Source: a bacterium (lineage in GTDB: Bacteria > Bacteroidota > Ignavibacteria > UBA10030). Taken from it: a stretch of 64,000 nucleotides of DNA. The notes beneath the pieces are model-generated. The model was given only the letters and a program-made list of their open reading frames with translations, was not told the origin of the DNA and did not search any database. Position 1 is the first letter of the stretch. Each line of letters begins with the position of its first letter. Below, piece by piece: positions 20,356 to 64,000 of the stretch. The DNA lies in the NCBI GenBank assembly GCA_043803945.1, contig JAZDJN010000087.1:96001-160000 (forward strand). The letters are read 5' to 3'. The position numbers were made by a program, and so were the translations under genes.

Positions 20356-21727
20356 TAAGCTGCTGGAAGATTCTCGAATTGCCACACTCTTAGAGCACCA
20401 TTCTCGATCAAGAGTGGTGGAGGAAATTCGGAGCTATCTCGATAGCCTCCGATCGGAAATCCTCTCTGCATCAAGGACAACGCTCCCTGAATACGATGCG
20501 TTAGTGGAGCGATTCGTCCGGGATGCAGAGAAGAAACTCCTTCCCGGTTTGCGGCGCAGCATCAACGGAGCCGGCATTATTTTACACACCGCACTTGGCC
20601 GCGCACCGCTTGCATCCGTTGCACAACAAGCGCTGATGATCGCCGTTGACCATTACTCCACGCTTGCGATCAATCTCGAAACGGGAAAGAGGGGCGATCG
20701 CAATGCGGCAGTGGAGAAACTGCTCAAGGCCATCACCGGAGCAGAAGCGGCAGTCGTTGTCAACAATAACGCCGCGGCAACACTGTTGATCCTCAACACG
20801 CTGGCAGAAGGGAAAGAGGTGATCGTCTCCCGCGGTGAACTGGTCGAAATCGGTGGATCGTTTCGCATTCCCGATGTCATGAAGCGGAGTGGAGCAAAAC
20901 TTGTAGAGGTGGGCACAACTAATCGCACGCACCTGAAGGATTACAAAAATGCGATTACTCCAGAGGCCGGCATCATACTTAAAGTACACCAGAGTAATTA
21001 TCGCATCATCGGATTCACCAGTCAGGTTGAAGTCGGCGACCTTGCATCGCTTGCACATCAGCATAATCTCAAGGTTGTCGACGATATCGGCAGCGGAGCT
21101 CTTGTAGACTTCAGCCGCTGGGGATTGCCGAAAGAACCTGTGGTGCAGGAATCTGTTGCCGCCGGTGCCGACGTTACATGTTTTAGCGGCGACAAGCTCC
21201 TGGGTGGCCCACAGTGCGGCATTATCGTAGGCAAAAAGGAGGTAATCGAAAAAATTAAGGGCAACCAATTGATGCGAGCACTGCGCTGCGATAAACTCAC
21301 GTTTGCCGTGCTCGAGGCAACATTGCTGCTCTTTCTCGATGAGGCCAAACTGCTGAAGCGTCATCCCGTCATGAAAATGCTTACGATGCCGCAGGAGGAA
21401 ATCAAACGACGCTGTACCCGCCTCAAGCAGAAACTTGCCAGAGTTATCGGTGAACAAGCGACGATGTCGGTTCAGCAGGATTCTTCCGAAGTCGGCAGCG
21501 GCTCGCTGGCCGCAATGAACTTACCGACGTGGGTACTCTCTCTTGAATTTCATACGCTCTCTGCCGATCTGCTGGCAAAAAAACTCCGGCAATGCACCAT
21601 TCCCATCATCGGCAGAATCAAAGAGAACAAATTTTTGCTCGATGGAAGAACGATTCGTGACGATGAGTTCGAGTTGATCATGCAATCATTTCGTGAACTG
21701 GCAACTACGCTGCTCCCCCATGCCTGA
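20309..21727 (+). CDS. selA: L-seryl-tRNA(Sec) selenium transferase
   Basis: [37 protein letters not shown] and [11 protein letters not shown] (PLP lysine) motifs. Confidence 0.97.
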
Positions 21728-23618
21728 AGCAGGAAACCGACATATCGTTCTCGGCATGGCGGGCCACATTGACCACGGGAAAACAGCACTTGTCAAAGCA
21801 TTGACCGGCACCGACACCGACCGCTTGAAGGAAGAAAAGGAACGAGGGATGACAACCGACCTCGGCTTCGCGTTCTTCGGCGACACCATGACGATTATCG
21901 ATGTGCCGGGCCATGAGAAATTCGTCAAGACCATGGTTGCCGGCGTCAATACTGTGGATATCGCCATGCTCGTCATCGCTGCTGATGACGGTATTATGCC
22001 GCAAACACGCGAACATCTCGAGATCCTTCGCCTGTTGCAGATTTCAAAGGGGCTTGTCGTTCTCAATAAAATCGACATCGTTGAACAAGAGTGGCTCGAC
22101 CTCATCACCGCCGATATCAGGGCATTGCTGAAAGGGAGTTTTCTGGAACATGCCCCCCTTGTATCCGTCAGTGCGCTGACGGGAAAAGGGATACAGAACC
22201 TTAAACGCGAACTTAATACGCTCGCAGGTTCTATTCAGGCAAGGAGAGACAAGGGAATCTTTCGTCTTCCTATTGACCGCGTATTCACTATTAAAGGTTT
22301 CGGCACTATCGTGGCCGGGACAGTCATATCCGGCAGCGTTCACGTCGACGATTCGGTGGAACTTCTCCCGCAGGGAAAAACTCTGAGAGTGCGCGGATTA
22401 CAGATCCACGAGCAGAATGTGTCAGAGAGCCGGATCGGTTTTCGTACGGCAATCAATCTGATGGGAATAGAAAAAGAATCCATTGAGCGGGGCGACGTAA
22501 TCGCGGCACCCGGTTTTTTCAAACCGACGTACATGATCGACGTACAATTTTCCTATCTGGCAGGGGCATTGCACGCACTTGAAAACCGTACACGTGTGCG
22601 CGTCCATATCGGCACCAGTGAAGTTATTGCCCGCATTATCTTACTGGATCGGGAAGCCTTTGAACCGGGCGCAGAGGGATTTGTACAAATCCATTTTGAG
22701 CAGCCAATTGTCGCAGATGCCGGCGATCGATTTGTCGTCCGAAGTTACTCTCTGCTGCAGACCATTGGCGGCGGTTCCGTTCTGGACACTCATCCGGAAA
22801 AACATAAACGATTCAAGGAGGAGGTCCAACACCGGCTGCAAACCATTGCACAGGGCGATACGGAACAGCACATCCTTGAGCATCTCATCCGGCTTGACAA
22901 TGCACTCGTCGATGGCAGCACATTGTCGAAAAACGCAAGCATCCCAATTGACACCTGTCTTCTCCATCTGCAAACCCTGGTGGAAAAGCAACAGGCCATC
23001 CGGTTTGGAGCGGAACAGTGGTATGCCGTTGCCAACCTTTCGATGCTGCGGAACCGTGTCTCGGAGATCCTGAAAAAATTCCACCGTGAACAGTCATTAC
23101 GAACCGGCATGCTGGTTGGAGAATTGCATTCACGAATCAAACCTCCCATTGAAAAGAAATTGTTCGATGCCGTTTGCCGTGCACTGCAGGCGGAGGGTAT
23201 GGTGCAATTTATCGGTGACCGTATTGCGCTCGCGGAATTTTCTATTCAACTGACACCTGAACAGAAGGAACTGAGGAAGAGGATCGAAAAAGAATTTGCT
23301 AAAACACCGCTTATGCCCCCAAATCCGGATGATCTTCTCCCTGGCCTTGGCAAAGAGAGCCAGCACATTTTTCAACTGATGATCGACGAGGGAGAGCTTG
23401 TCCGTCTTGACGAGGGGATTGTGATGCATAGAGAAGGGATTGAGTACGCGAAGAAAGAGATTACCACTTTTCTGAGCCAGAAGGACGCAGCGGCATTGGG
23501 CGAGATCAGGCAGCATCTGGGCATCACCAGAAAATATGCTCTTCCCCTGTTGCTCCATCTTGATACTTTGGGTATTACTGAGCGTGATGGGGATGTCCGA
23601 CGGCTTAAACAACGATAA
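21720..23618 (+). CDS. selB: Selenocysteine-specific elongation factor
   Basis: [30 protein letters not shown]; C-terminal winged helix with [11 protein letters not shown]...T.R.GD.R; ATG 21720 overlaps the end of selA. Confidence 0.97.
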
Positions 23619-25218: not shown

Positions 25219-26316
25219 ATGACACAAGAACAAGACAACACAGCGTCGAAGCCAAGTGGGCGGCAAATTCGCCTGATGAGCTTCAGCGCATGCGCCGGTT
25301 GAGCCGGCAAAGTGAGCCCGGCCAGGTTGGCCGGAATCCTTGACAAATTGCCGCGCGTCAAGTCGCCCGATCTTCTGGTCGACATGGAAACCATGGACGA
25401 CGCCGGTGTGCTACGCCTTTCTTCAGAACTGGCATTGGTGCAAACGCTCGATTTCTTCGAACCGATTGTCCATGATCCGAAAAGCTTCGGACGCATCGTG
25501 GCTGCCAACAGCCTTTCCGACATCTGGGCAATGGGGGGCACTGCATTGACAGCAATGAATATTCTTGCTTACCCCTCGAAGAAAATTTCCATCGATGTGA
25601 TCGAGGAACTGCTCATCGGCGCGTGCGAAAAACTGCAGGAGGCGAATGTCATTCTTGTCGGCGGACACACCATGGAGATGCAGGAGATTTTCTATGGCAT
25701 GAGCGTTACCGGCACAATCCATCCCGATCGTGTGCTCACCAATGCAAAAGCCCGGATTGGCGACAAGCTTCTTCTGACAAAACCGCTCGGTGTTGCCGTC
25801 TATTGCGAAGCGCTTCGCAACGACGGCCTGACGGGCGAACAATACAACGAAGTGATCGGAAGCATGGAGCGATTAAACCTCTATGCCTCACAGGTGCTGC
25901 AACGGTTCGATATCAGCGCTATGACCGATGTCACCGGCTTTGGATTACTCGGCCATGCACTGCCGATCGCCCGCAATGCAGGCGTTACGCTGGCAATAGC
26001 TGTCCATGATATACCTCATCTCTCCTCATTCTTTGATCTCATGCAGCAGTTTCTTCCAACACAAACATGGAAGAGCCATGAATATGTCAAGCCCTTTACA
26101 TGGAGAGATGAGCATATTTCAACAGATCAATATGCACTGCTGGGAGAAGCTCAGACATCAGGAGGATTGCTCGCGGCAATCAATCCCAAGCAAGCAAACG
26201 AAGCGCTGAGCGCATTACACGCTGCGGGAGATACAGCGGCAACGGTGATTGGAGAAGTAGTTGGACTTGTTAATACTTCAGAGGGACATCCGGTTTTTCT
26301 TCAGATTCTCCCCTAA
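25219..26316 (+). CDS. selD: Selenide, water dikinase (selenophosphate synthetase), Sec-containing
   Basis: ATG 25219 reads ...RLMSFSACAG-U-AGKVSP into the 25312 ORF; TGA 25300-25302 is at the catalytic C/U-x-x-K position; DDAGV, QTLDFF, AANSLSDIWAMGG, GGHT, TDVTGFGLLGH and QTSGGLL motifs. Confidence 0.95.
25318..25334 (+). promoter_or_regulatory. SECIS-like hairpin of selD
   Basis: CCGGCC-AGGTT-GGCCGG at +16 to +32 after the TGA. Confidence 0.75.
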
Positions 26317-33547: not shown

Positions 33548-33643
33548 GGGGATGAATGAGGACCTGGTGGCCTTCGCGGACTTCAAATCCGTTGTCCCGC
33601 CCCGAGAGGGGTGGGAGGTGGGTTCGATTCCTACCCGTCCCCG
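33548..33643 (+). tRNA. selC: tRNA-Sec (anticodon TCA)
   Basis: GGGGATGA/CCGTCCCC extended acceptor stem; anticodon arm GCGGA-CTTCAAA-TCCGT (TCA at 33583-33585); long variable arm TCCCGCCCC..GGGGTGGGA; T-arm GTGGG-TTCGATT-CCTAC; discriminator G; CCA not encoded. Confidence 0.95.
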
Positions 33644-33870
33644 CTAAGATTACTCTGCGATGGGACGAGGCTCGTCCGCCGAAGGCGAGACGGCCCGTCC
33701 CCGCTAAAAGAATCGCCGCCAAGTTCGCCAAGAACTAAGAGAGTGGAAGAGTGGAGGGTGCACACGATATACAAGCGTATTCTGTTAGAATCGTGAGACT
33801 TTACAATAGCTCTTTTATTTCTTTGTGTTCTTGGCGCCTTGGCGGCACACTATAGAGGAGGAACCAATCG

Positions 33871-38620: not shown

Positions 38621-38773
38621 TACGAGTAAAGAATGGTCTTCAGAATTATTCATCATACTTCATCTGTGACTATCAGTGCGTTTCTTGTGTTATCGGTGTT
38701 CTATTCTTGGTTTTTCGTATGTATAAAATTGCTATCTGAGTTACCAATAAACTTTAAGTATATAGAGGTGGAT

Positions 38774-40840
38774 ATGAAAAAGTTATTCTTCCTCTCGTTG
38801 ATAATCACACAAACCGTATTTGCTCAATGGTTCTGGCAAAATCCCCTTCCGTTAAGTCATATACTCCAAAGTGTCCACTTCACCGATGCCAATACAGGAA
38901 CGGCTGTGGGGTTTGGCGGCTCAATTCTACGTACTACGAATGGAGGTATAAGCTGGACGATTCAGTTTTTCAACAATGAGCTTATTTTCAATAGCGTCTT
39001 CTTCATAGATGCAAATAATGGAACAGCAGTGGGAGTTCCTGGTGTCATTTATCGTACCACCAATGGCGGTGCAAAGTGGACGAGCCAAACCAGCGGAACG
39101 ACAAATAACCTCAATGGTGTCTTCTTCACCGATCCCAACACGGGAACAGCGGTGGGAGATGGCGATAAAATTCTCCGCACGACCAATGGTGGTGCAACCT
39201 GGACGAGTCAAACGAGCGGAATAACAAGCGCTCTCAGAAGTGTTTTCTTCACTGATGCCAATACTGGGACAGTGGTTGGAAATAGTGGAACCATTCTTCG
39301 CACTACGAATGGTGGAGCGACCTGGGTGAGCCAAACAAGTGGAACAACGACTGGCTTTTCAAATATCTTCTTCACCAACGCCAATGTTGGAACAGCCGTT
39401 GGCGGTGGTGGAAAAATTCTCCGCACTACTGATGCCGGTGCCACCTGGACGAGCCAAACAAGCGGAACAACCAGACCACTTATGTGCGTCTTCTTCACCG
39501 ATACTAACACAGGAACGGCGGTGGGAGAAAGTGGCACAATTCTTCGGACCACCAATGGAGGTGCCGCATGGACAAGTCAATCAAGCGGTACAATTTATAC
39601 ACTCTATGGTGCCTTCTTCACTAATGCGAACACTGGAATAGTGGTCGGAATGTACGGTACGATTCTTCGCACCACTGACAGTGGTGCAAGTTGGGTGAAC
39701 CAATTATCTGGAAATTCAAGCCAGATCTTTGGTGTCGCCTTCACCAGTGCCACGACAGGAACAGCGGTGGGAGCAGGGACAATTCTTCGTACCACCACTG
39801 GCGGCGCAAGCTGGACAAGCCAATCTGTCGGAGTAACTGTCGGACTCAATGGTGTATCGTTCACCGACGCCAATATAGGAACAGCGGTGGGAACAGGCGG
39901 TGCAATATTTCGCACTACCAATGGGGGAACAACATGGACGCTCCAGACAAGTGGAACAAAGACTGATCTCAATAGTGTCTCCTTTACCGATGCTAATAGA
40001 GGAACAGCGGTGGGATGGTATGGCACAATCCTTCGCACAAACGATGGTGGTGCAACCTGGACGAGCCAGACTAGCGGAATCACAACCACGCTCTATGGCG
40101 TCTTTTTCACCGATGCCAACATAGGAACCGCAGTTGGAGATGGCACGGCAATATTACGCACAACAAATGGCGGAGCAAGCTGGACAAAACAGTCAATGAT
40201 GTACAATCTCCGGGGCGTTTATTTTAGCGATACCAATACAGGAACTGTGGTAGGAGAAAGTGGCAGAATTTTTCGTACTACCGATGGCGGCACAACATGG
40301 ACAAGGCAAACAAGTGGAACGGTATTTAATCTTTATGGCGTCTCCTTCATCGGTACCAACATAGGAGTTGCAGTAGGAACCTGGGGCACAATTCTACGCA
40401 CTACCAATGGTGGTTCAAGTTGGACAATCCAATCAAGCGGAACGACGAATGGGCTGCGCGCTGTCTCTTTCACCGATGCGAATACAGGAACAGCGGTTGG
40501 AGAAATCGGGACAATTCTTCGCACCACCAATGGCGGGATTACTGCGGTTGAAGAGTCTGTCGGTACGACAATCCCTGCAGGTTTTTCGTTACTGCAGAAC
40601 TACCCGAACCCATTTAATCCGAGTACAATAATCAGTTATCAGTTGCCGGTTCAAAGTTTTGTTAATTTAAAGGTGTTCGATGTGATTGGTCGAGAAGTGG
40701 AAACTCTTGTGAACGAAAGTCAATCTCCAGGTTTCTATCAAGTCCCATGGCAACCGAAATTTCTTTGTAGCGGGATATACTTTTATCGCATGACCACCGA
40801 TCGGTATTCACTTGTTAGGAAGATGATACTTCAGAGATAA
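38774..40840 (+). CDS. YCF48-like/BNR repeat protein (14 ~41-aa repeats) with T9SS C-terminal domain
   Basis: ATG 38774 after GAGGTG; repeats 'L..V.F.D.N.G.AVG..G.ILRTT.GG.TW'; LLQNYPNPFNP...SGIYFY..KM. Confidence 0.9.
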   Translation: MKKLFFLSLIITQTVFAQWFWQNPLPLSHILQSVHFTDANTGTAVGFGGSILRTTNGGISWTIQFFNNELIFNSVFFIDANNGTAVGVPGVIYRTTNGGAKWTSQTSGTTNNLNGVFFTDPNTGTAVGDGDKILRTTNGGATWTSQTSGITSALRSVFFTDANTGTVVGNSGTILRTTNGGATWVSQTSGTTTGFSNIFFTNANVGTAVGGGGKILRTTDAGATWTSQTSGTTRPLMCVFFTDTNTGTAVGESGTILRTTNGGAAWTSQSSGTIYTLYGAFFTNANTGIVVGMYGTILRTTDSGASWVNQLSGNSSQIFGVAFTSATTGTAVGAGTILRTTTGGASWTSQSVGVTVGLNGVSFTDANIGTAVGTGGAIFRTTNGGTTWTLQTSGTKTDLNSVSFTDANRGTAVGWYGTILRTNDGGATWTSQTSGITTTLYGVFFTDANIGTAVGDGTAILRTTNGGASWTKQSMMYNLRGVYFSDTNTGTVVGESGRIFRTTDGGTTWTRQTSGTVFNLYGVSFIGTNIGVAVGTWGTILRTTNGGSSWTIQSSGTTNGLRAVSFTDANTGTAVGEIGTILRTTNGGITAVEESVGTTIPAGFSLLQNYPNPFNPSTIISYQLPVQSFVNLKVFDVIGREVETLVNESQSPGFYQVPWQPKFLCSGIYFYRMTTDRYSLVRKMILQR

Positions 40841-50436: not shown

Positions 50437-50667
50437 ATGAAAAACAAACTCATCGATACCGTTCTTGTCCTTGTCTACATTACTGCCCTCTTCTCTATAG
50501 GTTTTTCTTTTTCGAGTTGTGTCTCTTCCGAACTTGCTCTCCAAATGGAAACCTCGGTCAACTGTCCGTTAATGAAGAATCTTCAGGACAACGACGAAGA
50601 TCTCTTTCAAATTGAAGACGGCATTGGCGCCGTTGGGGAGGCCTCAGCCTGCCCCACGTGAGGGTAG
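50437..50667 (+). CDS. Small lipoprotein selenoprotein ending CPT-U-G (DUF4266-like)
   Basis: Lipobox FSSC; ...GIGAVGEASA-C-P-T-TGA(50659-50661)-GGG-TAG; CxxU motif and downstream SECIS-like hairpin. Confidence 0.8.
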
Positions 50668-50671
50668 GTCC

Positions 50672-50691
50672 TATGTTTCAGGTGAAACATA
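50672..50691 (+). promoter_or_regulatory. SECIS-like hairpin
   Basis: TATGTTTC-AGGT-GAAACATA, perfect 8-bp stem at +11 after the TGA; same geometry as 19433-19452. Confidence 0.8.
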
Positions 50692-51707
50692 CGAATACTA
50701 TCTCTCGAGTTCGCATCCTCTTCGGAGTGCTGGTTGCGGCTATACTGTTCTCTCCCTCACCTGTTACTGCGCAAGGATATGACGATGCTTTCGAAATGAG
50801 AAGCAAGCTCAAGGTAGAGGTACAATATGCCGACTATGGGGAGTACGAATACCCTGAGCCAATCCTTTACCAGTATGGTCTCTCACCCTATCAACAACGT
50901 TATCCTTACATCGTCAATTTTCCTGAGCGGCGGGGACTCATCAAATTCAGCAGATTGGTGAGTAGTGAGACGGTTCTTGGATTCAAATATCAATTCTCCG
51001 ATCTCCGTGAAGATGTCAAGCAGCATCTCTTCGAAACAAAACTGACGAAAACACTGGATATCGGAATTATCGGTATAGCTGCGGCACAGCTTCTTCGTGA
51101 TTCCCGGGGATTTTCTGCGGTTCAATACGGAACAGGAATAAGCTGGGAGCCAAACGCAATCACATTGTTCCAGGGAGACATCCAGTATTATTATCGAGGA
51201 GATGCTGCTAGTAGTGTGGGCGGAAGATTAGGAACTGCCAATGCACGTTTGAAGTTCAGACAAGTCTTAACGCTTTCAACCGCCCTGCAAGCCGAGTATA
51301 GTTTCTATAACGCAGCGGGCAACTCGTTGAAGTTCAACTCGCAGAGCCTGGCACTGTGGCTCAGCCAATTTTTCAAGACACAAACAGCTATTCATGTCAA
51401 TGGCCGGTTCTATACAAACACGATGGGCATTCAATCCTTCTCCCCCTCTCTGGAAATTGCTCAATATATCGACTGGGCGACCGTTCTCTGGCTGAAGTTC
51501 CGGTACTATACAAACGAGAGCAGGAATGTCTCCTTCGGTGAGCAGGGTGTCTATATCCCCAACGGTTTAAGATCGACCTCGGTGAGCGCGCAGGTAAATC
51601 ATGAACTAACTCCCTCTCTGCTGGTTTACGGGAAATATCGGTACTACAAGAGTAACCTAAACATCCAGATGAATACCTATCTCACTGGATTGGTCTATTC
51701 CTTTTAG
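50673..51707 (+). CDS. Outer-membrane beta-barrel protein (DUF3570-like by context)
   Basis: Signal peptide, amphipathic beta-strands rich in Y/R, C-terminal ..GLVYSF. Confidence 0.75.
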   Translation: MFQVKHTNTISRVRILFGVLVAAILFSPSPVTAQGYDDAFEMRSKLKVEVQYADYGEYEYPEPILYQYGLSPYQQRYPYIVNFPERRGLIKFSRLVSSETVLGFKYQFSDLREDVKQHLFETKLTKTLDIGIIGIAAAQLLRDSRGFSAVQYGTGISWEPNAITLFQGDIQYYYRGDAASSVGGRLGTANARLKFRQVLTLSTALQAEYSFYNAAGNSLKFNSQSLALWLSQFFKTQTAIHVNGRFYTNTMGIQSFSPSLEIAQYIDWATVLWLKFRYYTNESRNVSFGEQGVYIPNGLRSTSVSAQVNHELTPSLLVYGKYRYYKSNLNIQMNTYLTGLVYSF

Positions 51708-51836: not shown

Positions 51837-51985
51837 TGTCATTCCGGCAATCTTCTAGCCGCCTGCCTGACGAAGTGTTCGTCACGCAGGCAGGGAATCC
51901 AGACAAAGGCTAAATCAATACACTGGACACCGGATTGAAGTTCCGCTGTACGGGATGCCGTAAAGCGGCACATTCCGGTGTGACG
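51837..51985. repeat. REP/RPE-like composite palindrome with a nested 33-bp CCTGCC...GGCAGG element (51862-51894)
   Basis: GTCATTCCGGC..GCCG[insert]GAATCCAG....CTGGACACCGG...CCGGTGTGAC. Confidence 0.65.
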
Positions 51986-52051
51986 CGTCATTTCTTTTTA
52001 GACGACCCCAAATTGGCGTGCCATCGGTGGAGAATTTACTTAATTACAGCA

Positions 52052-52825
52052 ATGAACAGAACTCGCGCTATAGGATTGTTGCTCTTTCTTCTCTCCTGGT
52101 TCTTGCTGCAGCAGTGCGGCGAGGCTCCTCCGACAATTCCGGAACTGTTTACCGGATCGCTTAAAATAACGGCATCTGATCCGGCAATCAAATCTCTGGC
52201 AATCGACCTTGACGACATAAAGCTTGGTCTCTTTCCGAATCCGGCATTGGTATCAGATCTTACAATCGGCACTCATAAACTTCTGGTCACCGGAGACAAT
52301 AAGGCTTCATCAGTACTACTCGTAACCATCGCACGAAATCAGCAAACCAATATTGTTCTCGAATTGCTGGCCGAAGGTGCGTTTCTAGGACAGAAAGCTC
52401 CAGATTTTGCTGTGACGACTATCCTGAATGAGCGATTCTCCCTTGAGTCGCAGAAAGGCAAAGTGGTGCTTCTTGCCTTTTTTGAACATACCTGACTGGA
52501 GTGCATTCAGGCGGAGTTGCCGTCTGTGCAATGGGTTGTCGGAGCAGCATTCTCGCCCGAGCAGTTGACGATATTGGGCGTGAATACTACATCCTCAACT
52601 GAGTGGTTGTTGAATTATCGCACCCAGTCGGGTATCACATTCCCATTCGCGTACGATCAGAAGAGCGAATTGTTTACCAAGTACAAAATCGGCGGAACGT
52701 ATGGATACTATCCGCCGACGTATATCATCATCGATCAGAACGGTATTGTCCGGTACAGAATTGACAACACCTTTAAACGAGCAGTGGAAATGGCAACTTG
52801 CATAAAAGGATTACTCACAAACTAA
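52052..52825 (+). CDS. TlpA/peroxiredoxin-like thioredoxin-fold selenoprotein (UxxC) with N-terminal PEGA-like domain, probable lipoprotein
   Basis: G.KAPDF...GKVVLLAFFEHT-TGA(52493-52495)-LECIQAELP joins ORFs 51935 and 52517 in one frame; later YPPTYIIIDQNG.VRY. Confidence 0.9.
52502..52530 (+). promoter_or_regulatory. SECIS-like hairpin
   Basis: TGCA..CAGGCGG-AGTTG-CCGTCTG.TGCA. Confidence 0.7.
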
Positions 52826-52851
52826 CCAAGGCAAACCTTGATGGAGGCGCT

Positions 52852-55161
52852 ATGAAAACGAAAGTGAGTATTATAATTCTGCTGATCCCGGTGATGATTG
52901 TGTCACAGAGCAAATCTTGGGAAGCGATGGGTCCAGAGGGGGGAAGAATTGCTGCGTTCGCCCAGGATCCTCAAAACGGCGCCATCTTGTACACAACAAC
53001 CTATGGATATCCCAGCAAAATCTTTAAGTCTTCAACTCACGGACAACAATGGAACGTGGTTGGATCGATCAACGATTATATCAGTGGATTTGCTATTGAT
53101 CCACGTATAAGCGCAATCATCTATGTGTTCTCCTCGAGCCGGCTCTATCGAAGCACAAATGGCGGGCAGATCTGGTCATCGATTCCGTTGCCGGCGAATT
53201 ATTACCTCTATGACATTTGCCTCGATCCGATAAAATCCAACACGATTCATGCAAGCGGCTATCATTACGTCTCCGGCACAACATACCAGTCGTACGTCGC
53301 TTATCTGAACAGCACGAACGCCGGTGCATCCTGGACAACAAACGATATTCTGCTGACGTTGAGCTACAATGAGGGATATGGGCGAGCCATCGCTGTCGAT
53401 AGTTCTGATAATCAAACAATCCTCATTGGGGGTTACGTCTATGTACTCTCTGGCAGTTTGTACAACGGATATGGCAAACTCCTTCGCAGCACAAACAGCG
53501 GCGTTAGTTTTTCCGACGTGACACCATCGGGTTCAGGGTATTTCTACGATGTTGCTATCGATCCGAAAAATTCCGGGAAGGCCTACGCAGCATCGTCGGG
53601 TGGTGTCTATCGAACAACAGACAAGGGATTAACCTGGCTGCGGAATAATGGTTTTGTGGGCATCTGTTACTATCTTTCCCTCGATAAGGCGAATCCCAAT
53701 AACCTTCTCGCTCAATCATACGGCCAACTCTACCGGAGCACTGACGCTGGAATCAACTGGCTTCAATCACTTACGACCGGGTCGGGGTATTCGGGGATCA
53801 TCATGGAGAACTCTCCATCGCAGTACATGTTTTATGCCAACGACGCCGGCATTTTCCAATCCAGCAACCGCGGCAACACCTGGGAACCCTGCAATCGCGG
53901 TATTACCTCTGCAAATATCACCTCACTGTATACTCCATCTTCCTCGATGCCAATCCTGTATGCAGGATTCCAATACAATACAGTATTCAAAACCACGGCT
54001 GCAACTAACCCGTCGGTATCGTGGCAGATGCTGGATCGATTTTACACATGCACCAATATCAACGCAATACTCTCATTGCCGGAAGATCCGAACAAGCTTT
54101 ATGCTCTGGAGGGCGGCGGCTGAGGTAACTCTGGGCTCTATATGAGCACAAACGGCGGCGCCGCTTGGAAACAACTCAACCAGACGCTTGATGAAGGATA
54201 CGCAGTTGTCACTGTCCCCGGAAGTGTTTTTACCGGAGGATGTCTTGTCGATAGTGCGCTTTCAAAGATGGCTGTTATCAAACTCACCATTGATGGTACG
54301 CTAACCAACACATCGATCCTGAGTTCTGAAGCCGGTGAGGTGAAGGCCATGGCTGTCCATCCCATAAATTCTTCTATCGTGTATGCGGGTGGAACCTATC
54401 GTGATATTTCATACTATAACTGCAGTCGATTATATAAAACGATAAATGGCGGAAGCAGTTGGTTTGAAATCGGTAAAACTAGTTTCAACATCAAAAACGA
54501 TGGAGTGTACGGTCTCTGTGTCGATCCATCGAATCCGGCTAAACTTCTTGCCGCAACAAACCTTGGTGTTCTTGTCAGTGAAAACGAGGGTACGACATGG
54601 AGCTCGGCAGCGCAGAAATTAAATTGCACCTCGCTTCTCCCCGACCCTTTAACGCCCAACCGGTATTTTCTCGGAACAAGAACCGGCGTCTATATCAGCA
54701 TTGATGGCGGGAAGTCCTGGCAGCAACTCGGGGGCCAATTAACTGCAACACCGGTTCTCTCGCTCGCTTATGATAAAATAGCAAAGGTCCTTTATGCCGG
54801 GACAGAAGGGCAGGGTGTTTACCGCTATAGCCTCTCGACAACAAATGTTGCTTCAGCACCCTTTGATGTGCCCGACGAATTTGCGCTGTACCAGAATTAT
54901 CCCAACCCGTTTAATCCATTGACAATAATCGATTTTCAATTGCCGATTACCACAATGGTGACACTTAGTGTTTTTGACCTTCTCGGCCGCGAGGTGGCAA
55001 TACTGGTGAATGAAGAAAAAACGGCGGGAAGGTACTCCGTTTCATGGAATGCATCGAACACTCCGAGCGGTATTTATTTTTACAGACTGTTGACCGGCGA
55101 CGCCAACCATGAACCAAGGGCAAGTCTCTGTCAGACAAAAAGAATGATCATCCTGAGATAA
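52852..55161 (+). CDS. BNR/VPS10-type beta-propeller selenoprotein with T9SS C-terminal domain (769 aa, Sec424)
   Basis: Signal peptide, W..MGPEGG start, S.N.G..W Asp-box repeats; YALEGGG-TGA(54121-54123)-GNSGLYMSTNGG joins ORFs 52798 and 54142 in frame; LYQNYPNPFNP. Confidence 0.8.
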
Positions 55162-55211: not shown

Positions 55212-56084
55212 TTGAGTACCTTGCTTTTATCCTATCACTTTGCAGCGACAATGATCCTTGCCCCAATGACTCCCTTACTGGCACAGCGACTCTGTGCTGC
55301 ACTTCACTGCAGCCTCCCCACAAAAAAAATGGTCGACGATATTTATCGGGCTGCACCAGTAAAACTTGCACCGCAGCCTATCCCCCCCAGCGGTGCCATG
55401 ATAACGGTGCCCGTGTTTGCCGCTCATAATGATTCGGTGCGACAATAACGCTCTGCTTCATTATCACAATTTCCCCTGGGTGTTCTGATAGGCGGAACAA
55501 AGAAGGATGTAATTATCTCAAACAGAATTTATACCAACCTAAAAATAAATGTCCCCAAGCCGGTCGTGATTTATGGATGGCATAAGCTCGATGGAACACC
55601 GATACAACCCGTCTATAACGGCCACGAGCAGACCTACGCCGATTACAGCCATGGCATTCGCCTTGTGAAGGATACCGTGCTGGTTGATGGTATCCCGAGA
55701 TTTCTCTCTTCGGTGCTTGCTGATCCGGTGTATCATCTTCTCTTGAGCGACGAAGGAATCATTTCCATTCCCTATTACACTTTATCTACCCATGTATTAC
55801 CCGAAGAGGTTCCACCGCCCTATCAATTTCAACTCCATCAAAACTATCCAAATCCATTCAACCCAATTACAACAATCTGTTTTACTGTGTCATCTTCTGG
55901 TAAGTATCAGCTCAGGGTGTACACCTTAACAGGAAAGGAAGTTAGCGTACTTGAATATCAGGAGTTGTATGCGGGTAATCAGACGGTTCGGTATGATGCT
56001 CGTGATCTGCCCTCGGGAACATATTTCTACAAATTAGAGAGCAAGAACGGTGCACTCATCAGAAAAATGACGCTGGTGAAATGA
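55212..56084 (+). pseudogene. 5'-truncated T9SS-domain protein gene with an internal TAA
   Basis: PMTPLLAQR...HNDSVRQ-TAA(55446-55448)-RS...GGTKKDV..VVIYGWH..YADYSHGIRLV..QNYPNPFNP in one frame; no signal peptide or credible start. Confidence 0.75.
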
Positions 56085-56500: not shown

Positions 56501-58933
56501 ATGCCAAGAATAATGCTGCTTGTTTTTCTCCTTGCTGCGTCTACACTCCAGGCTCAGGTGGCGCTGGATACTCTTTCTTCGTTCCCTGTGGCACCCGGTG
56601 TAATCCATACCACCATCGTTGCCCCGTCTGTTCCATGGACAATCAACCTGCTCCAGATCGACCTTACCAATCCCCTCATTAGCGTCAAAACGGTCAAAGC
56701 GAACGACCGCATGGCGGGTCTGGAACGAACAAGCTCCATGGCGGCACGGAATAGCCGCGAAGGTCACCTGGTTGCAGCCGCAGTTAATGGAGATGCTTAT
56801 GCGGCCGGTGGTATTCCCACCAACATGCAACTGGTCGACGGTGAGCCTGTTCACAAAGAGGTCGACAACGTCTGTATCGGGCTCGACCTGACCAAGAAAC
56901 CGATGATGAAGATGGTGAATTTCGACGGCGAAGTCCGGACCGCAAAGGAGGTCTATCATTTTTCCAGCATCAATCAGGCACGAGGATCCGATCAGCTTGT
57001 GCTCTTCAACCGCTTCTACGGAAACTCAACAGGTACCGATGCCAACGGTGCAGAGGCGCTTTTGACGCCTCTGTCGGAATGGTATGCCAATGGCCTCGTG
57101 GCATGCCGGGTCGATACAATTGTCAACGGCGCAGGGAACACGTCATTTCCCTCTTCAAAAGTTATCCTTTCAGGTCATGGCGCCGCTCGAACATTTCTAA
57201 CATCACGAATACAACAAGGTGACACGCTCCATCTCTTTCTCGGCCTGTCGCCCTCTCTAAAAAAAATGAAACAGATGATTGGGGGATTTTCTATCCTCGT
57301 GTCCGAGGGAAAAGTTAATACTACGCGTATCACGGTCCGTGAGCCGCGCACCATTGCAGGTTTCTCTGCCGACAGCACAAAACTCTATCTTGCGACCATC
57401 GATGGACGGTCGGCATCGAGTCTCGGGATGACTTACTTTGAGCTTGCCGATTTTATGCTCCAGATGGGGATGGCTTTCGGCATTAACCTGGACGGCGGCG
57501 GATCGACCACAATGGTCGTCCGGGATCAAATAACCAACCGCCCGTCAGACGGCCAGGAGCGAATGGTAGGCAATTCCATCGTCGTCGTTTCCACCGCGCC
57601 GAAAGGTCAGTTGACAAAGATTCAGATACTGCCGAATCGGGCAAAAGTTTTTATCGGAGATACGTTTCAGTTCTCGGCGCAGGGTGTTGATGAATATTTT
57701 AATCCGTATCAGCTCGATCCTTCCCTAATCACTTTTTCCGTTCATCCCTCCCTGGGAACGATATCCCCGACGGGACTTTTCAAACCGAGCGGGTTAAAAG
57801 AAAGCGGATTTGTCTACATCTCTTATGGATCGCTTATCGATTCCGCAGCAGTGTTGCTCCGAACGATCCGGCGAATAGCGATAACACCGAAATTTGCTGT
57901 CACCGATCTTTCCCGCCCAATTCCTTTTTCGCTGAATGGATTTGACGAGGACGGTATGGCACATAAACCCGGCCTTTATCAAATTCAATGGAGGCTCACG
58001 AATCCTTCGCTTGGACAGATTTCGCCGGAAGGCGTTTTTACTCCACAGGCCAGGGGAATCTCGCTTCTTATTGCCTCCATGAACAATACGGCAGCAGACA
58101 CAGCGCTGATCCGGGTGGAGACAGGAAGCGGAACGCTCGTGATCGATTCATTGGAATCGAGAGGGAACTGGAAAATCTCTATGTTGAATATCGAACAGGC
58201 CGCCGTGAGTATTGCTCCAACTGTCAGTTCATTAGGCCGGTTTTCTCTGCAAATCGATTATTCATACCGGTATGATTCAAGCGTCCCCTCGTACATCTAC
58301 ATCGATTCTTTGTTTTCGTTATACGGTGTACCGGATTCACTCTCGGTTGACTGCCGCGCCGATAGTGCACGGTACCGTCTCTATTTCATTGTCGAGGATG
58401 ACAACAGGGAATTATTCCGTTTCTTCGGGCATACATTTGCTGATCAGCCAAACATCTTCAAACAGATTCGGGCATCGACTGCTACTCCTCAGATGGTTGG
58501 CACCTCGGGAGTTTTCAATTTTCCTATCACGCTGAAACGTATCGAAATACAGTTGATGGGAACGGGAAAATTTTCAGGGACTCATTACAATGGTACGTTG
58601 TATCTGGATAATCTCACCGTTCATTATCCGGGAATTCCCACCGTTGCAGAACGGGAGATCTCTCCTCCTCGAACTTTTTCTCTTCTGCAAAACTTCCCCA
58701 ATCCCTTCAATCCGACAACGACCATCCGGTTTACGGTTCCTCACAATGGCCTATACCGCTTGACCGTTCATAACCTGCTGGGTCAGGAAGTGATTATGGT
58801 ACTGCACAAGACTCTTTCAGCAGGGTATTATTCGGTACTGTTCGATGCAGAGCAGTTAAGCTCGGGTATGTACGTTTACAAGCTCGAAGGGGGTGCGTTA
58901 ACCCTTACGAAGAAAATGCTGATCGTGAAGTAA
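56501..58933 (+). CDS. Phosphodiester glycosidase (NAGPA-like) protein with Ig-like domains and T9SS C-terminal domain
   Basis: AAVNGD, EPRT..G, TIDGR, GMT..ELA, NLDGGGSTT and NRPSDG.ER motifs; LLQNFPNPFNP. Confidence 0.9.
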   Translation: MPRIMLLVFLLAASTLQAQVALDTLSSFPVAPGVIHTTIVAPSVPWTINLLQIDLTNPLISVKTVKANDRMAGLERTSSMAARNSREGHLVAAAVNGDAYAAGGIPTNMQLVDGEPVHKEVDNVCIGLDLTKKPMMKMVNFDGEVRTAKEVYHFSSINQARGSDQLVLFNRFYGNSTGTDANGAEALLTPLSEWYANGLVACRVDTIVNGAGNTSFPSSKVILSGHGAARTFLTSRIQQGDTLHLFLGLSPSLKKMKQMIGGFSILVSEGKVNTTRITVREPRTIAGFSADSTKLYLATIDGRSASSLGMTYFELADFMLQMGMAFGINLDGGGSTTMVVRDQITNRPSDGQERMVGNSIVVVSTAPKGQLTKIQILPNRAKVFIGDTFQFSAQGVDEYFNPYQLDPSLITFSVHPSLGTISPTGLFKPSGLKESGFVYISYGSLIDSAAVLLRTIRRIAITPKFAVTDLSRPIPFSLNGFDEDGMAHKPGLYQIQWRLTNPSLGQISPEGVFTPQARGISLLIASMNNTAADTALIRVETGSGTLVIDSLESRGNWKISMLNIEQAAVSIAPTVSSLGRFSLQIDYSYRYDSSVPSYIYIDSLFSLYGVPDSLSVDCRADSARYRLYFIVEDDNRELFRFFGHTFADQPNIFKQIRASTATPQMVGTSGVFNFPITLKRIEIQLMGTGKFSGTHYNGTLYLDNLTVHYPGIPTVAEREISPPRTFSLLQNFPNPFNPTTTIRFTVPHNGLYRLTVHNLLGQEVIMVLHKTLSAGYYSVLFDAEQLSSGMYVYKLEGGALTLTKKMLIVK

Positions 58934-59815: not shown

Positions 59816-61852
59816 ATGAATCTCATCACCAGAAGAATTTCAGGGTGCATCGTTTTGATGTTCCTGTTTTGCGGGCTCCTTTTCTGTCAGAAAGCTCAAT
59901 GGGAGTCTCTCGGTCCCGACGGCGGTATGATTCAAAGCCTCCTCAAAGATCCGGGTAATGGTAACATTCTTTACTGTGCCGCTCAGGGGAAACCATACCG
60001 CATCTTCCGCTCGACAGACGGAGGGAACCACTGGTCGCAGGTTTCGAAGATCGACGATCAAGTGCTCGCCTTTGGGAATCATCCCACAGTGAAATCGATG
60101 CTCTATGTGCTCGCCTACAAAGTGAGCACAGACAATACACGACCGACACGGGAGAACACACTCTACATCAGCACGGATGGCGGAACAAGCTGGCTGACTA
60201 AAGAGCTTCCGGAGCAGACATTTATTTCAAAGATTGCTCTTGATCCGGTAAGCCCGACAATTATCCACGCAATGGGATTGCTGCAGCCGGATTATAAGCG
60301 GGCATACTTTAAAAGCACGGATGAGGGAAAGAGCTGGACTCAAACCATCATTGCATCGGGGCGTGGTTCTGCAAGCGTCCTTGGAATCGATCCAAAGAAT
60401 CCCAACATCATCTATGTCGGCGGTTATACCCTGAATGATTCCAACAAACTCGTGCCCGCATTCTATAAGAGTGTCGATGGCGGAGCACATTTCGAGCAGA
60501 TGTCCCTGAAGATCACCACTCCCGCAGTTGCCATCATTTCAGATATTGCCATCGACCCCACGGCCTCCGGCAGGCTCTTCATTTCAATTTCCAATGCCGT
60601 CTATCGAAGCACCAACGGCGGCGAATCATGGGAAAAGAACAGCAGTACAATCCTCGCAGTGCAGCGGCTCTGGCTCGACCCGAATGATTCGAACCATCTC
60701 TTTGCCGCAACTTCTCCGGGGATTATCGAGAGCAAGGATGGCGGCGTAACGTGGAAATCGCTCACCGGCAAATATCCCGGCCGAACAACGAATGGTCTCA
60801 TGTTCAAGTCAAAGCCAATGCCCACGGTGCTTGTTACCAACTCCTCCGGTATCTGGCGAACGGTGGATGGAGGAAAAACATGGAAGTCAAGCCACAGTGG
60901 CATTCTCGGTACAACGGTCACGGCGTTAAGTATCGCCCCATCGTCACCGAACATTTTATATTCCGATGTAAAGTTCAATGCGCTCTATAAAACAACAGTC
61001 GCTGCAAAACCAACTGTTGTATGGAAACAGCTTCCGGTTTTCTATACGTGTACAGAGTTAAGCAGCCTGATGATCTCGGAGAAAGATCCCGATAAAATCA
61101 TCGCCCTCGAAGGCGGTGGCTGAGGAAACTCAGGGCTCTTTGTGAGCACAGACGGCGGCGCCGTTTGGAACGAACAGGATAAGACACTTGATGACGGATT
61201 TGCACTTGCATTGGGATCGGCCCTCTATCAGGCGGGCAGTTGGAAACCGGATCCGAAGAATACGCTGATTCGAATGGCGGTCTTTAAGAGTTCTGACAAG
61301 GGCGAAACCTGGCAGCATAAAACACTCAGCGACAGCGCAGGGGTGGTCAAGGCGCTGGTGGTTCACCCTACAAACAAGAACATTCTCTTTGCCGGCGGGA
61401 CAGTCTGGTGGAACCGGTTTATGAAAAACGCTGTCACTAAAAGCGTTCTCTACGCTACTCAGGACGCTGGAGAAACCTGGATAGAAATCGAAGGATTGAA
61501 CGGCAAGTCGGATTGTATTAACGGCCTTGTCTTTGAACCAGGCAATCCTAATCGACTGCTTGCTGCCATGAACAATGGTGTTGCCATCAGCGAAGATGGA
61601 GGAAAGATATGGAAGCTGCCATCGCAGCAGGTAGCGGCACTTTGTATTGTTGCCGACCAGCTTCAAAAAGGGCGCTTTTTCATTGGCGGCCCGAAGGGTG
61701 CCTGGAGGAGCGATGACGGCGGAATCACGTGGAAAGAACTCAATGAGGGCTTGACCATTCGCTCGATTCTCTGTCTGACATATGATTCGAAAAATTCGAT
61801 ACTGTATGCCGGCACTGAAAGCGGCGGCACAGTACGGTTGCACCTGAAATAA
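59816..61852 (+). CDS. BNR/VPS10-type beta-propeller selenoprotein, no T9SS domain (678 aa, Sec436)
   Basis: TAAGGAG SD; WESLGPDGG; S.DGG..W repeats; IALEGGG-TGA(61121-61123)-GNSGLFVSTDGG joins ORFs 59816 and 61142. Confidence 0.8.
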
Positions 61853-62134
61853 CCCGATATGGTCGGGAGCAGACTTGTCCCGACGTTTTTGTCGGGAGCT
61901 CCCTCCCAGATACCGAACCGTTCTCTCCTTCCGGTGTTCATAGAGAAGGGAACGGTTCGTTTCGTACTATCGCTTTACAGTAATCAAGAGACTTCGTACA
62001 TTGTACTTGCCTGCCGGGAGAATGTGGGGAAGGTTCGGGCTGCGCGATGTGTAACGCACATCGCGCGATCATCAACACGTTCAGGACATCGTTCTCACAT
62101 GTTTATTCCACACAGCACAATCAGAGAGGTACAA

Positions 62135-63769
62135 ATGAAACCGTTCATTGTTGCTCTTGCTCTTCTTTTTGCGTTCTCCCTCCGCGCACAGGAAACGATC
62201 ATCACCGGCACACTGCTTGGTTATGACGGCAAACCGATGCAGATGACAAACATTCATCTTCAAAAACCGGGACAAAAACCAAAAGAAACTGTCCGGGCAG
62301 AGAAGGATGGTTCGTTCAAACTGATCGTTAAGGATACCGGCATTGTTCTTATCAAGTTTGCCGGACTCTTTCATCTGTCGGAAGATATTCCCTTTCTCAT
62401 CAAGCAACCGTCTACCATCAAGCTTTCGCTTCAGTTAGGGACATACCATTGCAATAAAAAACCACTAGACCCAAAGATTCTTGGAAGTTTTAATAATTGG
62501 AACTTATCGAAGCCTTTCGACCTGAAAGAAGAAAAGGATGGGACATATTCCGCGGAATTTGAAACAGCAGAAAAGGAATTTTCCTATCAGGTTCAGGGTT
62601 TTGAATCAACCGGTCGAACCGTTAACGGTACGCTTTCCGAACGGTATGAATACGACGGCGACGGTGATTATCGATCGATTGTGACACCAAAGGATGGAAA
62701 GATAAAAATTGTTTTTGATCCCTCTAAGGTTCTTGTCTCTTCCGCCCTGCCAAAACTCCAATTCGACGATCCCGGAAGCCGTGCGGCTCGCTATAGCACT
62801 TACCGCTTCGATGTCCTACGGTTGATACGGGAACGCTCATGGGCTCTCCTCGACTTTATTAACTCCGGAGGTGAGTCTAAAGACTTCAAGTTCGACAAGG
62901 ATTATTCGTCTGAGATGACCGCCTGCGCACAAGAAATAAAGAAGGAGAGTGATCCGCTGCTTCGTGATTTACTCTTTTTAAAATATTTTTACTACCCGCC
63001 TGAGAAAGGAGATATTGAAATTGCCAGACTCTACTTGAAGGTACTTCCCGACTTAATGAAACATCAACCTAGCGCGGGTGAGATCTCAGTTTTCTCTTCA
63101 CTTCTCTCGATCGGTAAAATGATGCAGTATAACGATGAATACATGAGCTCCTTTTTCGAGATCATTGATAATTCCAAAAGTGCAATTCTAAATTACAATT
63201 TGATCAATAATGTAATGAGAAATTTGAAGACACAGAACGATGCTGCGGCAGTAAAAGCATTCTACACGAAAGCGTTGGAAAAACTGGAAGGCACATCGTG
63301 GCTAAGGTCTTTCAAACAGCAATATGCTCCGAAAGCAGTAATTGCCGCAGGCGAAGCGGTTCCCTCTTTCTTAGTCAAGTCGCTGGAAGACAATACAAAA
63401 ATCTACACCAATCAAACAATGAAAGGCAAAGTGTACCTGGTACACTTCTGGGCGTCATGGTCCGAACCATCGTTGAAAGAGATGGAGAATCTTCACAAAA
63501 CGTATGAACAGTACAAAACAAAGAACTTTGAAATTCTCAGTCTCTCAGTTGATGCTTCACCGGAAGAGGGAACAGCGTTTCGTAAAAAGAAATGGGCGAT
63601 GCCCTGGCTCCATGCCTTTGCATCGACGGAGAAGAATTTGTTGGCCGACTTTGGGGTGCTTGCACCGCCAAAATTGATACTGATCGATACAAAGGGGATT
63701 GTCGTCGCAATGGACGCAGAGCTTCAGGGTGCAGCGTTGGGACAAACGCTTGCTCGTATTCTAAAATGA
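62135..63769 (+). CDS. Exported multidomain protein with a C-terminal TlpA-like domain whose CxxC is replaced by SxxS
   Basis: ATG 62135 after GAGGT; carboxypeptidase-regulatory-like N-terminus; GKVYLVHFWASWSEPSLKEM; PP..ILID.KG.VV. Confidence 0.85.
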   Translation: MKPFIVALALLFAFSLRAQETIITGTLLGYDGKPMQMTNIHLQKPGQKPKETVRAEKDGSFKLIVKDTGIVLIKFAGLFHLSEDIPFLIKQPSTIKLSLQLGTYHCNKKPLDPKILGSFNNWNLSKPFDLKEEKDGTYSAEFETAEKEFSYQVQGFESTGRTVNGTLSERYEYDGDGDYRSIVTPKDGKIKIVFDPSKVLVSSALPKLQFDDPGSRAARYSTYRFDVLRLIRERSWALLDFINSGGESKDFKFDKDYSSEMTACAQEIKKESDPLLRDLLFLKYFYYPPEKGDIEIARLYLKVLPDLMKHQPSAGEISVFSSLLSIGKMMQYNDEYMSSFFEIIDNSKSAILNYNLINNVMRNLKTQNDAAAVKAFYTKALEKLEGTSWLRSFKQQYAPKAVIAAGEAVPSFLVKSLEDNTKIYTNQTMKGKVYLVHFWASWSEPSLKEMENLHKTYEQYKTKNFEILSLSVDASPEEGTAFRKKKWAMPWLHAFASTEKNLLADFGVLAPPKLILIDTKGIVVAMDAELQGAALGQTLARILK

Positions 63770-63840: not shown

Positions 63841-64000
63841 ATGAACCTTAACTCACGTATGATCTTCCCGGCGATTGTGCTGCTTCTCCTTCTGCCGCTG
63901 CTGCTGGCCGGGCAAACCCGCCTGCCATTGAAGACCACTTCAAGCGGGCAGGGCGGAACGTGGGAGCCAATTGGACCTGAAGGAGGAAGTATGACTGCAC
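63841..64000 (+). CDS. N-terminus of a third BNR/VPS10 propeller paralog (3'-truncated by window edge)
   Basis: GGAGG SD; MNLNSRMIFPAIVLLLLLPLLLAGQ...TWEPIGPEGGSMTA matches WEAMGPEGG and WESLGPDGG of the two Sec propellers. Confidence 0.75.
   Translation, partial: MNLNSRMIFPAIVLLLLLPLLLAGQTRLPLKTTSSGQGGTWEPIGPEGGSMTA

Follow-up and report, generated by a model that had tools for sequence, protein, structure and literature searches.

Almost every bacterial selenoprotein catalogued so far is a redox enzyme of the cytoplasm or periplasm with a thioredoxin-like fold or a metal cofactor, and the prototype of decoding by an in-frame UGA and a selenocysteine insertion sequence (SECIS) inside the open reading frame (ORF) is FdhF of Escherichia coli. 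In Table 1 of a 2026 review (PMC13188914), prokaryotic selenoproteins are sorted into 119 families or subfamilies, and the extracytoplasmic ones named in this review include an FCYXU-type TonB-dependent receptor, an MtrB/PioB-like barrel, the ExtKL cytochrome, and a selenobacteriocin. In this study, we analysed a stretch of 64,000 nucleotides (the window; positions 96,001 to 160,000, forward strand, of contig JAZDJN010000087.1, assembly GCA_043803945.1) from a bacterium of the lineage UBA10030 (Bacteroidota, Ignavibacteria). It contains a gene for a double beta-propeller protein (paralog 1) with one in-frame TGA, followed by a C-terminal domain (CTD) for sorting by the type IX secretion system (T9SS). 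We consider it likely that this gene is decoded with selenocysteine (Sec) and that its product is T9SS cargo. The features of paralog 1 are listed below, with positions in the window.

52852..55161, + strand: paralog 1, putative double-propeller selenoprotein with CTD, 769 aa from ATG 52852
52798, + strand: alternative upstream in-frame TTG of paralog 1
52852..52911, + strand: predicted Sec-pathway signal peptide, MKTKVSIIILLIPVMIVSQS, read from the translation
54049..54051, + strand: conserved Cys (FYTC), Cys400 counted from ATG 52852, 24 residues ahead of Sec
54121..54123, + strand: in-frame TGA as predicted selenocysteine codon, in the loop EGGG-U-GNSG
54135-54147, + strand: candidate SECIS hairpin 1
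54149-54167, + strand: candidate SECIS hairpin 2, 7 bp with a G-rich loop
54898..55104, + strand: predicted T9SS type A C-terminal sorting domain (Pfam, NCBIfam, and genome scan)

When the TGA is translated as U, the frame from 52798 to 55161 is open and has only one odd codon, at 54121-54123, which agrees with the TGA named for this gene in the original prediction. This residue is U442 if counted from 52798 and Sec424 if counted from ATG 52852. The latter, 27 nt past the end of the upstream gene, is the likely start. The predicted peptide across the TGA reads ...ALEGGG-U-GNSGLYMSTNGGAAWK, and the N-terminal MKTKVSIIILLIPVMIVSQS has the typical n-h-c pattern of a signal peptide, judged by eye only. 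The Pfam domains of paralog 1 are Sortilin-Vps10/BNR plus Por_Secre_tail. In addition, membership of NCBIfam NF045728 (F510_1955 family glycosylhydrolase) is defined by a whole-protein score above 175 bits, and paralog 1 falls short of it with 135.4 bits. Paralog 2 (see below) reached 179 bits, but as a sum over seven repeated stretches of a 246-position model.

Two sister genes lie downstream of paralog 1.

59816..61852, + strand: paralog 2, propeller with predicted signal peptide and without CTD, TGA at 61121-61123 (U436)
63841..64000, + strand (L033:841-2898): start of paralog 3, which continues past the window end, TGA in GGGUGNSGL, without CTD

The motif ALEGGG-U-GNSGL is common to all three paralogs and is in frame on both sides of the TGA, and the upstream Cys (FYTC) is invariant in the three; identity to paralog 1 is only 36-38%. 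Paralog 2 stops right after the final propeller blade, and no CTD was matched in it by Pfam or NCBIfam. Thus, the earlier statement that this paralog lacks a CTD holds, and it bears the same in-frame TGA.

To find relatives, a profile of the three paralogs was searched with HMMER against 1.84 billion protein representatives. It matched 104,731 proteins at E <= 0.001, and the best 150 were examined. Fourteen of these 150 were single-stretch matches of 416-439 residues that ended at profile position 432-433, and their C-termini were ...EGGG, EGGT, EGGQ, EGYG, or EGFG; one of the 14 is the window's own fragment, and 13 are others. Judging from these ends, gene callers had stopped at the same codon in each case and left N-terminal halves as the truncated representatives. 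Furthermore, metagenome contigs were scanned with a profile built from six closer sequences; 615 stretches matched, 489 were relatives, and 78 loci were kept. A profile scan of genome contigs gave only two loci. The 78 metagenomic loci and one locus of a metagenome-assembled genome yielded 84 propeller segments, 57 of which span the Sec column. TGA was found at this column in 17 of the 57 segments, nearly all top scorers included. These 17 represent 17 distinct DNA contexts, and the upstream Cys is present in 16 of them. The remaining 40 segments belong to lower-scoring subfamilies with other residues at the column. Since the TGA is conserved in three paralogs and 17 metagenomic sequences, the in-frame TGA is not a matter of chance.

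Meanwhile, some continuous homologues carry Cys at the Sec column, namely P0197 (VNICGAD), P0268 (AGGCGYD), and P0226 (DYTCGDK), as aligned by eye and by the consensus xGxGCGxxxLY. The upstream Cys also occurs in P0197 and P0268. Other homologues, such as P0214 and P0264, have neither Cys, and P0192 has Ser at the Sec column while retaining the upstream Cys. Such an exchange of predicted Sec for Cys at one column is the classical selenoprotein signature. Separately, we observed two tandem Sec propellers in each of L044:3372-8125 and L045:3462-8059, every one with its own TGA and CTD. In the second gene of the former (L044:5561-8125), U-C-D replaces U-G-N and the upstream Cys is absent.

The above results bear on the possibility that the TGA is a true stop and that the gene is split or decaying, with a half carrying the signal peptide and a separate or untranslated half carrying the CTD. 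Gene callers do split the locus, and databases hold the halves separately as P0126 (423 aa) and P0150 (339 aa). In addition, an ATG (54142) is found 18 nt past the TGA. However, the TGA is kept in the three paralogs, in the 17 metagenomic contexts, and in the 13 further truncated clusters, and the Cys homologues are continuous proteins. The frame and the GNSGL peptide between TGA and ATG are conserved as well, and at the column of this ATG just 5 of 19 family members have ATG, GTG, or TTG, the other 14 having AAG, AGG, or ACG. The 339 residues of P0150 start with MSTNGGAAWKQ... and have no hydrophobic leader, and thus this product could not enter the periplasm. Furthermore, each half is an incomplete part of a single two-propeller body in the structure model described below. 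A true stop is therefore very improbable. The original prediction had regarded a C-terminal half that is made and exported alone as one case that would speak against it. This is unlikely, and we rejected an independent C-terminal product because a start-like codon occurs in 5 of 19 members only and a signal peptide is absent.

The window also encodes the machinery for Sec insertion, which includes the following genes.

20309-21727, + strand: selA (593.6 bits, cut-off 267.9)
21693-23618, + strand: selB (377 bits, cut-off 242.25)
about 25270-26316, + strand: selD, with one in-frame TGA of its own (324.4 bits, cut-off 125)
33548..33644, + strand: tRNA-Sec with anticodon TCA (ARAGORN; Rfam RF01852, 62.9 bits, gathering score 47)

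In this genome, TGA is the stop of 954 of 2761 ORFs of at least 250 aa (35%). Since it is an ordinary stop, a reassignment of TGA as in genetic codes 4 or 25 was ruled out. Another explanation is that the UGA is read through in a way other than as Sec, by near-cognate Trp or Cys suppression or by a local recoding signal, and a stem-loop 3′ of a stop codon is indeed able to promote ordinary readthrough as well. However, the complete Sec machinery is located 20-30 kb upstream in the same window, and the Sec propeller adjoins selA in two unrelated contigs (L034:2247-8645 and L066:3324-7621). The homologues with Cys at the Sec column, which share the upstream Cys, also disagree with this explanation. 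Furthermore, a survey of 151 genomes sampled from the window's class turned up selA in only 2 and the propeller family (E <= 1e-40) in 1, the window's own, which also bears selA. For the propeller family, the query of this survey was the CTD-less paralog, because the full-length query was swamped by CTD matches. Non-Sec readthrough is thus hardly credible.

The region downstream of the TGA appears to be conserved at the RNA level. Among the 51 nt from the TGA, 41 are identical in the three paralogs, compared with 19-23 of about 50 in three upstream windows. The third codon positions after the TGA (12 of 16 conserved across the paralogs) are as conserved as the first and second ones (13 of 16 each), which indicates selection on the RNA itself. 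RNAalifold analysis of 19 family members found a hairpin at alignment columns 44-62 (helix 2), and two of its pairs have compensatory changes. In the two-hairpin structure (54135-54147 and 54149-54167), 88.8% of cells are paired versus 27.7-42.7% when it is slid by 1-3 columns, and 14 cells are compensatory, a number that none of 500 shuffles reached. In addition, the Asp-box residues over the stem covary among the paralogs, as N/A (AAC/GCU), D/V (GAC/GUU), and S/T (AGU/ACU). The D/V and S/T combinations preserve both base pairs in this part of the stem through compensatory changes; in paralog 1 (N/A), one of these pairs is kept and the other is an A·C mismatch. Single-sequence folds of 70-100 nt after the UGA gave modest z-scores of -1 to -2.5. 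We propose the conserved downstream hairpins as candidate SECIS elements, either of which may be the one bound by SelB. In view of the machinery in the window, the conserved TGA, the Cys homologues, and the covarying hairpins after the TGA, the TGA at 54121 is almost certainly a selenocysteine codon.

For the T9SS part of our reading, the sorting domain of paralog 1 was found by both Pfam Por_Secre_tail (PF18962, residues 701-768, E 1.7e-8, 35.1 bits, cut-off 27) and NCBIfam TIGR04183 (T9SS type A sorting domain, residues 701-769, E 3.2e-8, 33.4 bits, cut-off 23). The whole-genome scan recovered the same stretch at 37.4 bits. This domain had been predicted about 260 codons past the TGA, and it indeed begins 259 codons later. 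With respect to the export machinery, SprA was found with 746.6 plus 226.5 bits within one 2285-aa frame (cut-off 200), PorV with 307.4 bits (cut-off 250), and PorU with 1001.5 bits (cut-off 420), and porU adjoins porV. The genome contains at least 150 CTD loci by TIGR04183; 150 of 185 candidates were scored, and all of them were over the cut-off. The neighbouring genes at 55566-56084 and 56501-58933 each have a CTD. Further T9SS cargo genes stand in a row at 38.6-50.3 kb, and among them are a 735-aa PSII_BNR-type Asp-box propeller with a T9SS CTD and without an in-frame TGA (38633-40840), and a 1499-aa FG-GAP/TIG protein.

Among 12 full-length read-through metagenomic orthologues, six have a Por_Secre_tail match of at least 27 bits. 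Their C-terminal regions are as follows.

L039, L040, both L044 genes, L045 (3462-5750), and L093: Sec orthologues with CTD over the cut-off
L042 (22.5 bits), L064 (3333-5690; 23.7 bits), and L045 (5750-8059; 19.8 bits): Sec orthologues with Por_Secre_tail below the cut-off
L064 (3-3329): overlapping FlgD_ig match only
L066 and L051: other C-terminal extensions

The predicted Sec-then-CTD layout is thus a recurring trait of the family. The CTD is also frequent in non-Sec relatives, for example P0139, P0141, P0149, P0167, P0205, and P0241.

It should be noted that several observations weigh against paralog 1 being a Sec-decoded T9SS cargo. First, no Rfam SECIS family was found at the TGA site, where only snoRNA or viral matches of chance level occurred, and some 36-40 nt separate the UGA from the apical loop of the better-supported hairpin, which is near the upper limit for bacterial SECIS elements. 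Moreover, the contrast in pairing between the two-hairpin structure and its slid controls is inflated because the structure was drawn from the same sequences as the pair counts. Second, GldK was matched only weakly in the genome (80.6 bits, cut-off 350), and GldL, GldM, and GldN gave no match with TIGRFAM and Pfam models. The GldM model was over its cut-off in 19 of 81 genomes of a phylum sample, and it found nothing in the 19 genomes sampled from the window's class, the window's own included. The GldK-N models were trained on Bacteroidia, and model divergence is a plausible cause of the miss. The T9SS motor in this class is either divergent or absent, and the class may have a different motor. 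Third, the CTD is missing from three (L034, L066, and L051) of the 13 complete Sec orthologues. These orthologues, together with the two CTD-less sister paralogs, indicate that surface export is not essential to the propeller family.

The second point would also suit a reading in which Sec is inserted and the CTD does not drive T9SS export here, being instead an Ig-like (FlgD_ig-type) module or another surface-anchoring signal. GldK/L/M/N are the energising part of the known T9SS, and FlgD_ig scores are equal to or above those of Por_Secre_tail in several orthologues. However, SprA, PorV, and PorU, the CTD signal peptidase/sortase, are over curated cut-offs, the GldM model comes from another class of the phylum, and so many CTD loci at C-termini would make little sense if the genome had no export route devoted to them. 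For these reasons, we regard this reading as unlikely and T9SS export of the Sec-containing protein as the better account. The original prediction had proposed that the genome should be checked for SprA and PorK-N homologues, and a genome without T9SS would have contradicted it. The first part was confirmed, since SprA was found together with PorU, PorV, and the CTD loci. PorK-N were not detected, and a full canonical T9SS is not demonstrated.

The AlphaFold2 (AF2) model of paralog 1, made from a 30-sequence alignment, had a mean predicted local distance difference test (pLDDT) of 86.7 and a predicted TM-score (pTM) of 0.78. An N-terminal signal helix (residues 2-16) is followed by two propellers, and a disordered linker (663-685) leads to the CTD, which is a beta-sandwich. 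The best PDB matches in Foldseek were GH74 xyloglucanases (E 5.6e-26, query TM-score (TMq) 0.57, 15-18% identity), many GH74 structures matched at TMq 0.55-0.58, and the model has the two seven-bladed propellers forming a cleft that are typical of GH74. A profile search of the PDB also placed GH74 on top (6.3e-51), with alignments out of register because of the repeats. PorZ (5m11) had rank 27 in Foldseek (E 2.2e-19, TMq 0.47).

In the model, the Sec loop (EGGG-U-GNSG) sits at the start of the second propeller. Cys400 precedes the strand 403-409. The loop 421-428, which holds Sec424, joins two strands of one blade, 412-420 and 429-432. By general propeller topology, the loops of Cys400 and Sec424 are on one face, which makes a Cys400-Sec424 selenylsulfide plausible. 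Cys400 is probably the selenylsulfide partner of Sec424, and the two probably form a redox-active pair.

Based on these results, we propose the following mechanism. One polypeptide would combine a Sec-pathway signal peptide, a GH74-like pair of Asp-box propellers, and a T9SS type A CTD. SelB and tRNA-Sec would insert Sec at the UGA at 54121, with a stem-loop within the following 48 nt as their guide. The precursor would cross the inner membrane via the Sec translocon and then fold in the periplasm, where the co-encoded Sec-containing redoxin (see below) is a probable partner for the Cys/Sec pair. The CTD would then hand the folded protein to SprA, PorV, and PorU, and thus to the cell surface. 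Termination at the UGA would give a product of 423 residues (signal peptide counted) that lacks the CTD and is unable to use the T9SS. This would happen when selenium is short, and probably also in some fraction of ribosomes at all times. In E. coli, UGA-SECIS recoding is given as 30-40% efficient and selenium-dependent (PMC4513850).

Because the CTD lies behind the UGA, secretion would depend on selenium, as the original prediction proposed; apart from the PorK-N result, sequence analysis supported its reading wherever it could be applied. Selenium-dependent secretion follows logically from a CTD 3′ of the Sec codon, as a corollary of gene layout and not as a demonstrated regulatory device. 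The sequences show the layout of the gene, the conserved TGA, the Sec machinery, the CTD, the core T9SS genes, and the synteny; that Sec is actually inserted and the protein secreted, that Cys and Sec are bonded and serve in redox chemistry, and what becomes of the truncated product, we infer. In addition, the truncated fragment and the sister paralogs would reside in the periplasm, judging from N-terminal signal peptides recognised by eye.

Paralog 1 is the last gene of a three-gene cassette, and another thioredoxin-fold gene is located between its two sisters.

50658..51707, + strand: first cassette gene, porin-like outer-membrane beta-barrel, 349 aa, ends in YSF
51935..52825, + strand: second cassette gene, TlpA/ResA-like redoxin with N-terminal hydrophobic anchor, TGA at 52493-52495
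61859..63769, + strand: TlpA-like thioredoxin-fold protein, 636 aa, between paralogs 2 and 3, CxxC replaced by SxxS

The 349-aa barrel protein matched no Pfam or NCBIfam family. Its AF2 model is all-beta with low confidence (pLDDT 60.5), and its top Foldseek matches are all outer-membrane porins. The TGA of the redoxin has the context FFEHT-U-LEC (UxxC) and a strong hairpin lies some 15-40 nt downstream; the domains are AhpC-TSA/Redoxin, and the ResA match (51.6 bits) is under its cut-off. The order barrel, redoxin, propeller is kept in L040 and L093, where the barrel is 56-59% identical and the redoxin is 41% identical with TUxxC kept. This cassette points to a thiol/selenol redox function in the envelope or at the surface. 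Meanwhile, the C-terminal domain of the 61859-63769 protein has S-E-P-S (WASWSEPS) in place of CxxC. Its homologue in L034 has A-G-P-C and is directly upstream of the Sec propeller of that contig. For the CTD-less propellers, this protein may serve as a partner that is redox-inactive or has a single Cys.

The gene order in L034 is Trx-like protein, propeller, Fer4 membrane protein, selA, and selB, and the order Fer4-selA-selB is also found at 19459-23618 of the window. Since selA is rare in the class and the client genes stand beside the Sec machinery, the machinery and its clients look like a co-travelling, acquired selenium island. It may be imagined further that barrel, Sec-redoxin, propeller, and Sec machinery form a horizontally spread island that serves a T9SS-exported surface selenol catalyst, with the CTD behind the UGA as a quality gate, an idea that we hold to be speculative and rather doubtful. 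If true, only selenium-loaded enzyme would be displayed, and the surface of starved cells would be free of inactive protein. Such an enzyme would then be the first selenoenzyme that the T9SS delivers outside the cell and that is built on a glycosidase-type scaffold, with extracellular sulfur, selenium, or disulfide compounds as its possible substrates.

In addition, ~6-9 kb past the window end, the same strand encodes a tandem pair of paralogous membrane proteins with about 497 aa apiece (L033:9968-11464 and L033:11477-12967). Both have an in-frame TGA near the N-terminus in the context C(A/S)GGG-U-G(A/S)S, which has the same GGGUG core as the propellers, and a hairpin after each TGA. They matched no Pfam or NCBIfam family. 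They may represent one more selenoprotein family that is not yet listed; alternatively, a local SECIS/SelB preference may have shaped the motif.

The GH74-like double-propeller selenoproteins are apparently an undescribed family, on a non-redox scaffold, whose members would also be T9SS cargo. Table 1 of the above review (PMC13188914) has no propeller, BNR, sortilin, or GH74-type entry, and other surveys or supplements could already list the family. No mention of a propeller, BNR, or secretion was found in the article texts of PMC13188914, BSepDB, and deep-Sep. Furthermore, a full-text literature search found nothing that ties selenoproteins to T9SS cargo, the CTD, or a beta-propeller. Our reading would carry the known uses of selenium out to the surface of bacterial cells and link them to one of the main secretion systems of Bacteroidota. 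The in-frame Sec codon would explain many “truncated” database entries of 420-440 residues in the propeller family. Meanwhile, Sec machinery beside propeller genes may explain the persistence of the Sec trait, which is otherwise nearly absent from the lineage. The coupling of recoding efficiency to secretion could be studied with a simple handle, with or without selenite and with or without T9SS.

Compared with known systems, paralog 1 resembles the GH74 xyloglucanases (6p2o, 5jwz, and 2cn3) in having two seven-bladed propellers. However, the identity is low, and paralog 1 has a conserved Cys/Sec pair and thioredoxin-fold neighbours, which suggest redox chemistry rather than glycoside hydrolysis. 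PorZ, a surface component of the T9SS, has the same domain order of two propellers and then a CTD, but its fit is weaker than that of GH74, and the sequence similarity is confined to the C-terminal part (residues 583-741). To our knowledge, PorZ has no Sec or Cys pair.

As in T9SS type A cargo (TIGR04183/PF18962; SprA, PorV, PorU), there are a putative signal peptide, judged by eye, and a CTD of 70-80 residues in a genome rich in such domains. Paralog 1 differs from this cargo by a predicted selenocysteine ahead of the CTD and by belonging to a class in which the PorK-N motor was undetected. The extracytoplasmic selenoproteins of PMC13188914 are precedents beyond the cytoplasmic membrane; those named there have other folds and export routes, and none is T9SS cargo or a propeller.

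Finally, paralog 1 shares with the selenoproteins decoded by SelB and SECIS the in-frame UGA, a candidate SECIS stem-loop within about 50 nt, selA, selB, selD, and tRNA-Sec, and Cys homologues. It differs from them by its GH74-like Asp-box double propeller, whereas the others are thioredoxin-like or contain metal cofactors. Furthermore, the usual selenoprotein motif is UxxC or CxxU, whereas the propeller family has C-x23-GGG-U-G.

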